Assembly (NCBI GenBank): GCA_035480475.1 | Contig: DATIHS010000016.1 | Location: forward strand, 1-30,445 | Source: Patescibacteria group bacterium | GTDB lineage: Bacteria; Patescibacteriota; Saccharimonadia; Saccharimonadales; DATIHS01 | Length of the DNA stretch: 30,445 bases | Direction of reading: 5' to 3' | Shown here: positions 1 to 4,127 of the stretch, in pieces | How positions within the stretch are numbered: position 1 is the stretch's first letter | Layout: each line of letters begins with the position of its first letter | Position numbers and translations under genes: made by a program | The notes under the pieces: model-generated | Seen by the model: only the letters and a program-made list of their open reading frames with translations | The model's database searches: none | Told to the model about the DNA's origin: nothing

Positions 1-412
1 AATTATTGAGTCCGCATGGGGTTATGCGACATATTTACGACCTTTTCTCATCCGTTAATTACAAATCAGTGTGGCAAAACTCAGAAGTCTTTTTAGGGGT
101 TTCTGCATAAAAATAGAGGCTTTTCTAACCTGTTAATTGCAAAACAGTATGCAGAAACTATTGGACTCTGCTAGGGTTTTTTCTACAAAATTGACACATT
201 TTGCTCTCTGTTAAAGCCAAAACAGTGTAAAAAAATTAAACCTAGTATTTGTATTGGCAAAGATACTTGGCATGTCAGCCCCACAGGGCCAGTGTGTGCG
301 GTTTTAAGGGGTTGGGTTGCATATCCCTCGGTCTGCTTGCCGATCAGGGCTTTTGCAGCCCCTTGCAAAACCCATTTAATATAAATTAGCACTAGCTTAA
401 TTGGCCATTTTT

Positions 413-421
413 TGGTATAAT
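413..421 (+). promoter_or_regulatory. Extended -10 promoter (TGGTATAAT) upstream of the small ORF and recombinase
   Basis: Perfect TATAAT at 416-421 with a TG extension, about 107 nt before the ATG at 529. Confidence 0.5.
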
Positions 422-528
422 GTAGGTAGAGTTGGATGAGTATTTGTACGATACTCATCCGTCACCTAAGCAAAGGTTAGACTAAATCAACTTAAACGGG
501 CATTGACCGAAAGGTTCTTGCCGGAATA

Positions 529-711
529 GTGATGAAGGATAACCTTTCTTTTATTATTGAGGCAGAAAACAAGAAGCTCATTAAGCCCAGGCTTAAAGAG
601 GCTGTTGTTAAGCAGAAAAAATTAACCAAGCGTGAACTACTAGAGTTGGCAAACTATTTATATTCACGTTACGAAACTACCAAAAAGCCCTTGAACATGA
701 GGCCTGACTGA
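529..711 (+). CDS. Small basic hypothetical protein (60 aa), candidate recombination directionality factor
   Basis: Lys-rich ORF with a helical C-terminal segment (KLTKRELLELANYLY), directly upstream of the recombinase. Positional analogue of 15681-15896. RDF role is inference. Confidence 0.5.
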   Translation: MMKDNLSFIIEAENKKLIKPRLKEAVVKQKKLTKRELLELANYLYSRYETTKKPLNMRPD

Positions 712-840
712 TCAATGAATGAAACGGGTACAAATCGTGGTAAACCAAGCAAATAATTTTATAGGTACTAAGGGCAGCTTCTGTAGCCATACCACATGGT
801 GTACCCTGGAAGCTGTCCTTCGTGCTTGTAAGGTGGCATT

Positions 841-2490
841 ATGACCCAAATCAAAGCTATCGTTAACGGCAGAGTTTCTACTCCCGATCAGCTAAAGAAC
901 AACAGCCTTGGCCGACAGGAGGAATCGGTAGAAATTGCTGCTGTTAAACTAGGTGCCGTTATTCCCGACGATGGTAGGTGGGCTGGTAGTGTCAGTAGTA
1001 AAGCTGGCACTAATGTAAAGCGAAAAGACCTGCTGGCAATGGTTGAATACTGTAAAAAACACAAAGACGTAAAGTATGCCATTTTTGATGAGTATGACCG
1101 CTATATGCGCAGCGTCAATGAAGGACCGTATTTTGAAGTTGTATTCCAGCAGCTGGGTGTGAAAGTTTGGTATGCCTCAGAGAGCGACCAGTTCAATGGA
1201 GATGACGCAATGGCTAAGTTTCAGCGAGCTATGAGTGCATACCGAGCAGAAGGAAGCAATGAAGAGCGTCAGCGCAAGTCCGTACATGGCCACGCAAAAG
1301 CTATACGAGAAGGTCGCCACACATTTCCAACCAAACCTGGCTACATAAAGGGTGAGATACCTGGCGTTAAGGTTCCTCACCCCGTCACATTTGAGCCGTT
1401 TCAGACCGCCCTTAGAGAAGTAATTAGCGGGCTTTACGCCCCAACCGAAGCATTAAAACGACTGAACAAGAGTGACTTCACCAAGGTTCATGCTCCCTGG
1501 TCTATGGACAAGTTCCGACAATTCGGTTGTGACCCCTACTACGCTGGCATTTTAGTTATGGACAAGCAGGTTCAAGAGCGCAACGAGTGTGGGCAACACG
1601 AACCAATGATAAGCCTTGAGGACCATGAAGAGTTGGTACGCATATTTACAGGTAAGTTCAAGCCACGAGGGGCAAAAAAGCAGTACAACCCAGACTTCCC
1701 AATGAACAAGGTTCTGGTTTGCGAAGACTGTGGAGGTGAAGTCAAATTCACTGGCTCCAAAAAAAGCAATGGTTATCACCGCAAAAACACCACCTATTAT
1801 TGGAAGTACGAGTGTCGAGGTTGCCACAAGTCATACCACCGCCACGAGGTACACGGCAAAATAACTGAGCGCCTAAACGAAATTCAATACACAGGCAAGC
1901 AACGACAGGAACTTATAGAAGCCTTAGCAACAGTATGGGGTCAGAAAAGGAAAGACAAGGTCCAACAGGTCAAGGCGCTAGAACAGCGTTCTGAGGTTCT
2001 ACAGCAAACCAAGTCAAAGCTGGTAGTTGAAATGGCGCAAGCAGACCCCGAATACAAGCAAGACCTGAAAGACGAAATTGACAAAATAAAAACGCAGATT
2101 GCCAATACTGAGACACTAGTTAGCCAGTCAGATGAGCTTCAAGAAGACTTGCTAGACTTCGTGAAGTTTGGACTGGAATACACCAATACACTAATGGACG
2201 ACTGGTGGAAGTTAGACCACGAGGAACGGGTGCAGTGCCAACAATTGATATTACCAGGCGGAATTTCGTTTAATTCACAGAAAAAAGTTGGCACCACCCA
2301 AATCTCGCCAATTTACACCTTACAGCCAAACAAAAAAGACCTTCGGATTGACCGAAAGTCCCTTATGGTGGAGCTGGCGGGTAATGCTCCCGCGTCCGCT
2401 AGCTTAAAAGTTAGTCTGTCCTACAGGCTTATGACATTTGACGTTGAGACCGATGGCATAATAAATGTCCAAAAAGCCAACGATCTTTAA
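841..2490 (+). CDS. Large serine recombinase (resolvase + recombinase + zinc-ribbon/coiled-coil); last 41 aa encoded by antisense tmRNA
   Basis: N-terminal GRVST catalytic motif, DRYMRS, CEDC...YECRGC zinc ribbon, then a long coiled coil. Confidence 0.92.
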   Translation: MTQIKAIVNGRVSTPDQLKNNSLGRQEESVEIAAVKLGAVIPDDGRWAGSVSSKAGTNVKRKDLLAMVEYCKKHKDVKYAIFDEYDRYMRSVNEGPYFEVVFQQLGVKVWYASESDQFNGDDAMAKFQRAMSAYRAEGSNEERQRKSVHGHAKAIREGRHTFPTKPGYIKGEIPGVKVPHPVTFEPFQTALREVISGLYAPTEALKRLNKSDFTKVHAPWSMDKFRQFGCDPYYAGILVMDKQVQERNECGQHEPMISLEDHEELVRIFTGKFKPRGAKKQYNPDFPMNKVLVCEDCGGEVKFTGSKKSNGYHRKNTTYYWKYECRGCHKSYHRHEVHGKITERLNEIQYTGKQRQELIEALATVWGQKRKDKVQQVKALEQRSEVLQQTKSKLVVEMAQADPEYKQDLKDEIDKIKTQIANTETLVSQSDELQEDLLDFVKFGLEYTNTLMDDWWKLDHEERVQCQQLILPGGISFNSQKKVGTTQISPIYTLQPNKKDLRIDRKSLMVELAGNAPASASLKVSLSYRLMTFDVETDGIINVQKANDL

Positions 2491-2746
2491 TCCGTTTGTC
2501 TTAGCGCTCCCTACGGATCAGTGAGGTGCGAGCGTCCTTGGAAATATGACATCACGGGACACTACCAAGGCGTCGTGTCCAGGATGCAATTCGTTCTTAG
2601 GCGAATTGAAGTGCTGGCTTTAGCGAAAACGCTGAAGCCAAGCGACTGACAAATGTCTTTGCATTTATTCAGGGTTTGCCTATAACGCTGACAAGCGGCC
2701 TGCTGAGCTAACTGTTAAGGTCCAACGTCGAGCTAAAATCAGCCCC
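2366..2746 (-). ncRNA. ssrA: tmRNA (381 nt)
   Basis: 5' GGGGCTG pairs with 3' CAGCTCC-A-CCA including the G3.U alanyl identity pair; T arm GCGGG/CCCGC; internal tag ORF after an AATAAAT-GCA resume context. Confidence 0.95.
2597..2662 (-). other. tmRNA tag reading frame AKTFVSRLASAFSLKPALQFA*
   Basis: Resume codon GCA at 2662-2660 after GAATAAAT; 21 sense codons, then TAA at 2599-2597. Confidence 0.8.
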
Positions 2747-2776
2747 ATATCGTGTCACCTCTGTTGTGACTATTGC

Positions 2777-2785
2777 ATTATACCA
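2777..2785 (-). promoter_or_regulatory. Extended -10 (TGGTATAAT) for ssrA
   Basis: Perfect TATAAT plus TG about 30 nt upstream of the mature 5' end; small leader hairpin GTCAC/GTGAC at 2754-2770. Confidence 0.55.
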
Positions 2786-2816
2786 CTTATGTCAATATTT
2801 TGCTAGGGGATATAGC

Positions 2817-4127
2817 TTAGTGTGTTGCGGCTTCAGAGCCCCAGTCTTCATGCAGCAAGTGAGCAGGCGCCCGGTAGATGATCAGGAATATCAGGCCGCC
2901 TGCGAGCACGGTAATACCGCCCGCGAGCACCGGCACGCTGACGCCAATTTCGGCCAAGTAACCACTCATGGCGGCCGGAATCGTTTGAGCCAGCGATTGC
3001 ACTGAGGCGTTAATGCCCAGCACTTCGCCCTGAATATGTTTATCGGCCGAAATGCTCACCAGGGCCGTAAGGTTGGCAATGGAGTTACCAAGGAAGAAGG
3101 CGAACACGGGGGTGATCCACAATAAGTGGGTCGTATTGCTCGCCAAGAGGTACATAAACAAGGTCAGGCCTGAGCCTATCACGCTGAATCGTACCACTTG
3201 GAATGGCCGCAAACGTTTGGCTAGTAGTGGCGTAAATATGGCCTGCGTAAGCGCAATCCAGATGCCCACAAACGCAAAGAAGTCACCTATATTGTTAGCC
3301 GAAAAGTGCAGCTTTTGGATGAGCATAACCTGAAAGAACGTTTGGAAGAAGGCAAAGCCGCCCCAGAACAAGAAAACCGTGGGAAAGACCACACGCAAAC
3401 CTGGATATGACATGGCAGTAATGATATTACGCACGGACTGGCTCACTTTAAGTTTCAGATGTTTCAGTTGCTTGTTGGTCTCAGGCAGGAGGGTAATGAT
3501 TAGTAAGAAGTTTATGGAGCTCAAGACAGCCGTAAACCAGAATGGCAGGGCCGGACTAAACCAATGGGGTGTCGTAAACAGGCCATAAACGTTAACGTGT
3601 GGTGAGCCAAGTTTGGCGCCTAAGTACGGACCGAGGACAAAGCCGAAACCGAACGCCGCACCAATGAGGGCAAAACGTTTGGCACGGTCTTTGGGAGGTG
3701 TGACATCAGCAATGACGGCTTGGGCGACACTTAAGTTTCCACCGGTAATACCATCGAGCGAACGGCTGAAGAAAAGCAACGGTATGTTTCTGGTAATAAT
3801 ACCAATCGCAAACAGTACATAACCCACTGCCGTACCAAAGATGCTAAAGCCCAAGATAGGCTTGCGACCGAAGCGGTCTGATAACTGGCCTAAAATAGGT
3901 GTGGATAGAAACTGCATAAACGGATAAATGGCCAGTAGCCAGCCCAACAGGATAAGGCCACCTTTATACGTCCAACCTGCCGGTAAAAGATAATAGGCGG
4001 AATGGGGGTTGGCCAACAGCTGGGGAATAATCGGGATCAAGATACCGACGCCTAAAACGTCCAGAAAAATAGTAAAGATAACTATCGGAAGGGCTTTGCC
4101 TTCCAGCCGACGTTTAATTGTATCCAT
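2817..4127 (-). CDS. MFS efflux transporter, DHA1/TetA-like
   Basis: Motif A GQLSDRFGRKP, antiporter motif C GAAFGFGFVLGP, about 12 hydrophobic segments; SD AAGGAGG inside the end of marR. Confidence 0.9.
   Translation of the reverse strand: MDTIKRRLEGKALPIVIFTIFLDVLGVGILIPIIPQLLANPHSAYYLLPAGWTYKGGLILLGWLLAIYPFMQFLSTPILGQLSDRFGRKPILGFSIFGTAVGYVLFAIGIITRNIPLLFFSRSLDGITGGNLSVAQAVIADVTPPKDRAKRFALIGAAFGFGFVLGPYLGAKLGSPHVNVYGLFTTPHWFSPALPFWFTAVLSSINFLLIITLLPETNKQLKHLKLKVSQSVRNIITAMSYPGLRVVFPTVFLFWGGFAFFQTFFQVMLIQKLHFSANNIGDFFAFVGIWIALTQAIFTPLLAKRLRPFQVVRFSVIGSGLTLFMYLLASNTTHLLWITPVFAFFLGNSIANLTALVSISADKHIQGEVLGINASVQSLAQTIPAAMSGYLAEIGVSVPVLAGGITVLAGGLIFLIIYRAPAHLLHEDWGSEAATH

Follow-up and report, generated by a model that had tools for sequence, protein, structure and literature searches.

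The start of the window (the whole stretch of DNA analysed here, 30,445 nucleotides long) carries a tandem array of hairpin units with a narrow distribution, which is well supported as a cargo part of a small serine-recombinase element at the 3' end of the tmRNA gene in a Saccharibacteria-type genome. The window is the entire contig C16 of a 691-kb assembly, 86% complete, from an ultra-small soil bacterium. Compensatory changes in the outer stems of the hairpins, together with the conservation of these stems between orthologues, suggest a single-stranded role, making the left part of the region, to about position 250, a good candidate for a nucleic acid that acts in single-stranded, folded form. 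The initial annotation had proposed a chain of hairpins from 99 to 370 as one structured RNA or single-stranded DNA signal. That proposal is partly supported, for the part up to about 250, where the outer stems are compensated and conserved. The 99-370 region is not one structured RNA. It is a mosaic in which the second and third array units are followed by the scar of a deletion, by what is left of the 3' flank of another gene, and by backbone of the element. The corrected anatomy confines the candidate signal to 17-250 plus a missing unit 0.

The 78-nucleotide hairpin array

The window contains three direct repeats with an exact 78-nt period (17-94, 95-172 and 173-250), so the array begins before coordinate 99. 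Identity from unit to unit is 54-59%, against a background of 27%, and autocorrelation at lag 78 is 0.49 compared to 0.27 +/- 0.04, or 5.6 sd above the mean of the other lags, the strongest signal of its kind in the whole window. The closest relative is L008, a 3.5-kb metagenome contig with a recombinase 89% identical to that of the window (L169 and L170 are identical copies of this contig). The L008 array has four units, starting at 324, 402, 480 and 558, with a complete unit 0 at 324-401; window 1-16 is therefore what remains of a unit 0 that the contig end cuts off. The parts of the array in the window are:

1-16, plus strand: unit 0, 3' spacer only, the rest lying beyond the contig start (blastn alignment to L008)
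17-94, plus strand: hairpin unit 1 (repeat family D1, gapless alignment, CM R1 78.3 bits)
95-172, plus strand: hairpin unit 2 (repeats, fold, alignment, CM 88.3 bits)
173-250, plus strand: hairpin unit 3 (repeats, alignment, CM 77.8 bits)

Each unit is laid out as a hairpin of about 60 nt in which a 12-bp outer stem, its arms separated by 38 nt, encloses a T-rich stretch and a small palindrome, CTGTTAATTGnAAAACAG. The inner motif, CTGTT-N8-AACAG, is conserved among the units, though degenerate in units 1 and 3. The outer arms of unit 1 (20-31/70-81) have two mismatches, with the degenerate inner motif at 52-56/65-69. Unit 2 has perfect arms of 11-12 bp (98-109/148-159), unchanged in L008, and its inner motif lies at 130-134/143-147. 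The arms of unit 3 (176-187/226-237) are imperfect, the inner motif lies at 208-212/221-225, and a deletion junction takes the place of the 3' spacer. The perfect 11-bp stem with an inner CTGTT/AACAG that had been described at 99-109/148-158 is present, is the minimum free energy structure and corresponds to unit 2; a second CTGTT/AACAG, at 208-225, is the inner motif of unit 3. All seven units, three from the window and four from L008, align without gaps apart from a 1-nt indel in unit L0. Units are spaced 78/78/77-78 bp, and unit length is held to the base despite a divergence of about 45% between units.

When taken as a whole, 99-370 folds little beyond chance, with z = -1.86 on the plus strand (7/200 shuffles equal) and z = -0.87 on the minus strand. 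Dinucleotide shuffles of the window contain, on average, 0.7 perfect 11-bp inverted repeats with a loop of at most 60 nt (at least one in 18/40 shuffles), so that chance alone would be expected to supply one in 30 kb. Unit 2 alone folds at z = -2.0 on the plus strand and -2.7 on the minus strand; units 1 and 3 alone give z = -0.43 and +0.16, respectively, which is no improvement on shuffles. The full four-unit array of L008 reaches z = -2.68 as plus-strand RNA, -2.48 as minus-strand RNA and -3.30 as plus-strand DNA (0/100 shuffles equal). That the minus-strand fold nearly matches the plus-strand fold counts against a plus-strand RNA.

Over the seven units, the RNAalifold consensus consists of a 12-bp outer helix and a 5-bp inner helix. 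The outer helix has double changes at 5/12 pairs, and covariation, which had been suggested as a check on the structure among homologues, is seen there between units: the score of 0.311, drawn from four or five independent unit types in 2-3 closely related lineages, compares to 0.153 for shuffled alignments (0/500 reach the observed value) and 0.05-0.13 for slid controls. About 90-92% of outer-helix cells are paired, compared to 39-53% with partners slid. The cores of the arms vary by unit type and each is matched by its partner (TTTTCGGACA/TGTCCGTAAA, TTTTGCGACA/TGTGGCAAAA, TTTCTGCATA/TATGCAGAAA and TTTTTCTACA/TGTAAAGAAA). A variant contig from soil runs X2/X3 has a fifth matched arm pair in unit 3, GTTTTGCGACA/TGTCGCGAAAC, as rebuilt from a difference table from which up to four of the contig's differences are missing; here, 182 and 184 T>G are paired with 229-232 AAAA>CGCG. 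Between orthologous units, outer-stem columns differ at 3/72 positions, compared to 36/162 elsewhere in the units (Fisher p = 0.0005). The inner helix shows zero compensatory change across the seven units and is partly broken in units 1 and 3; it behaves like a conserved sequence, as in a DNA operator. As for strand, a G.T bias had been taken to favor a plus-strand RNA. A slight bias exists: once an invariant terminal pair is set aside, the outer helix has only about four plus-type wobbles against two minus-type mismatches, and the resulting plus-strand preference is weak.

The array family is known from the window, L008 and one soil variant. A search for DNA homologues of 1-840 in 60 genomes of the same order returned only chance matches of 22-29 nt, and an nhmmer profile of the unit, run on about 230 loci, found the window and L008 (with L169/L170) only. 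CM R1 detected no further array copy in 149 other Saccharimonadales genomes and 31 related loci. Within the 691-kb assembly it matched just the three adjacent units; the copies are not dispersed, which argues against a dispersed palindromic repeat of the MITE, REP/BIME or Correia-like kind. A pattern scan of IMG/VR gave 55 single matches, none extending past the pattern, which we read as chance. The earlier statement that the region belongs to no known RNA family agrees with our Rfam searches. Rfam 15 run on the whole window at gathering thresholds returned only tmRNA and tRNA, the best match in window 1-900 at E up to 10 was rliE (16.8 bits, versus a gathering score of 90), and L008 1-2300 gave zero matches at E up to 1. 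No RNA run is among the sequencing runs listed as holding the sequence.

Several other identities were considered and rejected. Protein coding is not supported, in agreement with the original reading that there is no convincing ORF: the 91-aa frame at 183-458 (minus strand) spans the deletion junction and is 40 aa in L008, and neither it nor the short plus-strand ORFs are conserved in L008 or match a Pfam family above cut-off. Reading of the sequence revealed no conserved -35/-10 on either strand that would place a promoter inside each unit. An att-like site for the serine recombinase was likewise dismissed on reading, as the unit is asymmetric about its center and bears no resemblance to the crossover region at the tmRNA end. 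A CRISPR array is not indicated because the entire 78-nt unit is homologous (54-59%), without repeat/spacer alternation. No reverse transcriptase that would accompany a retron msr-msd array is encoded in window 1-4000 or on the 3.5-kb L008 contig; the L232 locus has an RVT_1 gene 4.5 kb from its Zn-ribbon gene and lacks the array. The inner motif does not fit a LexA box, since CTGT...ACAG is spaced by N10, not N8, and the motif is not enriched genome-wide (5 sites in the window's genome versus 3 for the reversed control). The sole LexA_DNA_bind match in this genome, a protein of 149 aa (G000 C76:11909-12358; L242 310-759, minus strand), lacks a peptidase domain, and an 8-nt overlap between its gene and the one upstream leaves no intergenic operator.

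The deletion junction and the recombinase element

Two blocks of the window align to L008, both at 87% identity (blastn): window 1-238 with L008 386-623, and window 267-840 with L008 1660-2239. Between them, about 1036 nt of L008 (624-1659) are absent from the window. This segment holds a promoter region, a native palindrome and a 316-aa Zn-ribbon ORF, and its presence in L008 between the two blocks means that 99-370 is not one conserved RNA. The junction has a short ATTA microhomology. The variant soil contig runs unbroken through the junction without the 1-kb segment, and therefore a second gene-less lineage, about 12% diverged, exists. From the junction rightward, the features are:

238-266, no strand: deletion junction (blastn, L008 sequence and ORFs, pairwise alignment)
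267-322, plus strand: remnant of the lost gene's conserved 3' flank (91% and 87.5% identity to L233 and L237, respectively)
300-372, plus strand: long hairpin closed by GGTTTT/AAAACC and GGGGTTG/CAGCCCC (folded in both the window and L008)
411-419, plus strand: extended -10-like element TGGTATAAT (read from sequence; conserved in L008)
434-460, plus strand: hairpin with a perfect 10-bp stem in the small ORF's leader, or 5' UTR (repeat I14)
532-711, plus strand: small basic ORF of 59-60 aa ahead of the recombinase gene (ORF list)
841-2490, plus strand: large serine recombinase of 549 aa (Pfam Resolvase; PHROG integrase, 1.7e-38)
2366-2746, minus strand: tmRNA gene, the element's integration target (Rfam RF00023, 67.9 bits, E = 1.3e-24)

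The sequences in L233 and L237 that match 267-322 directly follow the same gene in other genomic contexts, indicating that the window lineage formerly had this gene and then deleted it. The hairpin of the 3' flank, which contains CAGCCCC/GGGGTTG, is conserved; it shows no compensatory change, and its covariation term in RNAalifold is unfavorable (+2.12). Two of the stems in the proposed chain, CTAGG/CCTAG closing 171-245 and AGTAT/ATACT around 244-267, span the deletion junction. Their sides lie 1 kb apart in L008, and the two are hence not conserved as stems. Pairing can be drawn as described at 276-314, 315-360 and 351-370, but 268-375 folds at only z = -0.77, and the 315-360 stems fall in a patch that is not alignable with L008. 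The long hairpin at 300-372, which has a z of -1.11 in its L008 version, has an apex (about 323-350; L008 1719-1755) that is not alignable and includes a 9-nt indel, with flanks that are 95-100% conserved. Homology to the 3' flank of the Zn-ribbon gene stops at this apex patch, which is probably an old recombination joint. Positions 323-370 are backbone of the element, preceding the operon of the small ORF and the serine recombinase, and from about 351 onward this backbone is common to L008.

We infer that TGGTATAAT is the promoter element of the small-ORF/recombinase operon; it is without a -35 and was not picked by a consensus promoter scan. The region at 420-530 folds at z = -4.16 (0/200 shuffles equal), and the leader stem within it is shorter in L008 through a 4-nt deletion. 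The small ORF, a candidate recombination directionality factor, matched no family in Pfam or PHROG. It is the first sequence kept in more distant relatives, with DNA conservation shared with L165, L166, L167, L006 and L007 starting at about 602-616, inside the ORF. The recombinase has weak matches to Pfam Recombinase and Zn_ribbon_recom, its homologues (n=335) are for the most part from Saccharibacteria, and the 3' end of its gene overlaps the tmRNA 3' end.

The element is truncated at its left by the contig start, and its continuation was not found in the rest of the window's own assembly. Relatives with longer contigs put the element size at only about 3-5 kb. The far ends of sister elements are marked by tmRNA 3'-end repeats of 12-14 nt, at L165 1799-1812 (5.2 kb upstream) and at L166 8181-8192 (3.3 kb upstream). 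Cargo differs among these sister elements and in L165 includes a HEPN_AbiV gene. In soil runs X1-X4, the summed contig depth over window 2350-2436 is 170-1090x at the tmRNA 3' end, compared to 3-13x for the element, and many contigs diverge into unrelated sequence at 2366. This peak and branching suggest either that the tmRNA end is common to many organisms or that it holds many different insertions.

The Zn-ribbon gene and the origin of the array

In L008, the array is directly upstream of, and co-oriented with, the 316-aa Zn-ribbon gene, and it occupies the intergenic space between two divergent gene starts. The divergent gene is represented by its N-terminal 86 aa (L008 1-258, minus strand), which match only repeat modules of giant proteins (2,000-8,000 aa; best E = 3.7e-23, 12 stretches). 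The 316-aa protein has weak Zn-ribbon matches in Pfam, all under curated cut-offs, and no match to a Rep, Rep_3 or winged-helix family in that database; its protein-atlas neighbors are TPR-like or unnamed.

Other genomic contexts of the gene were taken from members of the protein's 90% cluster (L232-L238). Homology between L008 and five of them (L232, L233, L236, L237 and L238) spans L008 649-1718, starting at a perfect palindrome, CTGTTATTATTAAAACAG, and stopping 83 nt past the stop codon. This native palindrome is one perfect copy of the inner motif, lying 6 nt before a GGGAG ribosome-binding site in 5 contexts, and it spans a TATTAA -10-like hexamer in all gene contexts. In L232, all five pairs of the native element are kept only via G.U pairs on the plus strand. 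The more distant Zn-ribbon homologues L171, L172 and L239 have neither the array nor the native palindrome upstream.

The unit interiors, consisting of the T-rich run and the palindrome, resemble the native element with its T-rich flank. Given this resemblance, and given that the shared homology starts at the palindrome, the array looks like a fourfold amplified, stem-clamped copy of the Zn-ribbon gene's 5' cis-regulatory element, as judged from sequence comparison. L237 matches L008 262-314 and then almost directly L008 649 onwards, which defines the array as a discrete 334-nt block (L008 315-648) relative to L237. In L008, other sequence takes the place of the -35-like hexamer that precedes the native element elsewhere, an arrangement that would fit transcription entering the gene through the array.

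The Zn-ribbon gene moves as a 1.07-kb module comprising the 5' palindrome, the CDS and the conserved 83-nt 3' flank. The module is 87-91% identical at the nucleotide level between genomic neighborhoods and was found in 4/400 sampled Saccharimonadales genomes, a combination of high identity and rarity that suggests recent horizontal spread. A 53-nt promoter-proximal segment (L237 674-726 versus L008 262-314, 92% identical) precedes two unrelated minus-strand genes, indicating a recombination breakpoint at the start codon.

Candidate functions and related systems

We tentatively favor a plus-strand, multi-hairpin RNA acting as a binding platform, a reading in which we have less than even confidence. 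It draws on the covariation and conservation of the outer stems, the co-orientation of the array with the gene, the native element near the Shine-Dalgarno sequence, the replaced -35-like hexamer and the G.U pairs of L232. In this model, the array would be transcribed on the plus strand, being read in L008 as a long leader of the Zn-ribbon gene and in the window as an orphan non-coding RNA toward the recombinase operon. The hairpins would fold independently, with unit-specific outer stems stopping mispairing between units, and every hairpin would display the same inner element to a putative factor that recognizes the native 5' hairpin of the gene. The outcome may be a multi-site platform that binds or titrates this factor, as a cis leader or as a decoy. 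A bolder version, which we consider quite improbable, is that the mobile element of an epibiotic bacterium copied the 5' hairpin of its cargo gene four times, gave every copy a co-varying clamp stem of its own and expresses the set as an RNA decoy that titrates the factor reading this hairpin; the decoy could persist and act in trans after loss of the gene. In that case it might act, for example, on a copy of the gene already present in a newly entered cell, or on the gene's regulator there.

Some of the same observations weigh against an RNA platform. Unit length kept exact to the base is typical of phased DNA sites, and it is somewhat unlikely, yet worth weighing seriously, that the array is a set of double-stranded DNA sites in which the palindrome is the operator of a dimeric DNA-binding protein controlling the promoter of the Zn-ribbon gene and the four 78-bp-phased upstream copies serve as auxiliary operators or for titration, or as iterons of a replication origin of the excised circle. 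The inner motif, conserved as sequence without compensatory change, would be explained in this way, as would the perfect palindrome placed 6 nt before the Shine-Dalgarno sequence and over the TATTAA hexamer in all gene contexts, the spacing of 78/78/77-78 bp retained at about 45% divergence, and the position of the array between two divergent gene starts in L008. A consensus scan also predicted neither a sigma-70-like promoter nor an intrinsic terminator in or near the array that would make it a transcription unit of its own, an absence that is weak evidence. Protein-binding sites would, however, leave unexplained both the covariation and the top ortholog conservation of 12-bp arms standing 38 nt apart. 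Moreover, 78 bp amounts to about 7.4 helical turns, so the sites would not lie on one helix face; the motif, at 5 sites against 3 for its reversed control, is not a genome-wide regulon; the neighboring Zn-ribbon protein has no Rep or winged-helix match; and the 3-5 kb elements examined encode no replication gene.

Because the partner gene is gone from the window, the array there may be a relic, and template-switch 'correction' of quasi-palindromes could yield compensated arms without selection. The corresponding explanation, a decaying tandem duplication of the gene's upstream region that in the window has no function now that the gene is deleted, and whose arms are kept or perfected by intrastrand template switching, we regard as unlikely. 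It accommodates the loss of both the gene and the native element from the window, the limitation of the family to 2-3 close lineages, the imperfect helices and shuffle-like folds of window units 1 and 3, and an array identity to L008 (87%) equal to that of the flanking DNA. It does not accommodate outer-stem columns five times less diverged than the other unit columns, the perfectly compensated arm pair retained in the second gene-less lineage, or the same length and register being held by four unit types. Very unlikely, in our estimate, is a signal in single-stranded DNA of the element, as would form after uptake by the naturally competent host or during rolling-circle or transfer replication, with the hairpins serving as sso/ssi or Frpo-like priming or initiation sites. 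The best folding score of the full array is that of plus-strand DNA, the stems are kept as structure while their sequence varies by unit, and the array sits on a mobile element, all of which suit such a role. Against it, neither the element nor its relatives encode a HUH Rep, relaxase or other ssDNA-processing gene, known sso/ssi are single long hairpins rather than four short tandem ones, and the link to the 5' element of the neighboring gene is left unexplained.

An RNA platform would resemble the CsrB/RsmX-Y-Z sponge RNAs in its layout. These consist of tandem hairpins with variable, co-varying stems that display one short protein-binding element, which also occurs near the Shine-Dalgarno sequence of the target gene. 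Tandem hairpins with variable, compensated stems are likewise found in the array (5/12 pairs, 0/500 shuffles); its inner motif is present in all units, in degenerate form in units 1 and 3, and has its perfect copy close to the Shine-Dalgarno sequence of the Zn-ribbon gene. In the sponge RNAs, however, the constant element is a GGA loop, whereas in the array it is an 18-nt mini-palindrome with a T-rich flank in a large internal loop. The array further differs in having four units only, no predicted promoter or terminator of its own, a binding protein that is putative and, in L008, a position in cis, directly upstream of the gene with the native element.

The iteron/rep systems of theta plasmids, such as pSC101, F oriS/RepE and P1 incC/incA, offer a second parallel. 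Like the array, they have direct repeats at fixed spacing beside a gene whose promoter region bears an inverted-repeat version. Iterons are 17-22 bp long at a spacing of about 22 bp and go with a Rep-type winged-helix initiator, in contrast to 78 bp and no Rep match here. In addition, the array units have co-varying outer arms, and the Zn-ribbon/helical gene occurs without the array in other genomes. Integron attC sites and plasmid single-strand origins share with the array imperfect inverted repeats in which pairing is kept while sequence varies. The attC sites, however, border gene cassettes and are served by tyrosine integrases (IntI), and sso elements are single; the array instead has four head-to-tail units with no genes between and is associated with a large serine recombinase.

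Type III toxin-antitoxin arrays (ToxI, CptI, TenpI) are composed of near-identical tandem repeats of 34-45 nt, followed by a terminator and then an endoribonuclease toxin gene (PMC8860590, PMC12283969). The L008 array is similar in that non-coding tandem repeats lie upstream of a co-oriented protein gene on a mobile or defence-type element. It is set apart by 78-nt units that are 54-59% identical, by the lack of a predicted terminator between array and gene, and by the persistence of the array where the gene has been deleted, as in the window. Pfam and PADLOC searches of the Zn-ribbon protein gave no ToxN/AbiQ/CptN/TenpN-type match.

If the array is a set of DNA sites or a relic, it is ordinary. 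To our knowledge, almost nothing is known of regulation in Saccharibacteria. Should the array instead be expressed as a multi-hairpin RNA, it would be a first case of regulatory or decoy RNA carried as cargo by the minimal serine-recombinase elements that target tRNA/tmRNA genes in these bacteria, and it would show such an RNA arising by amplification of a gene's own 5' element.
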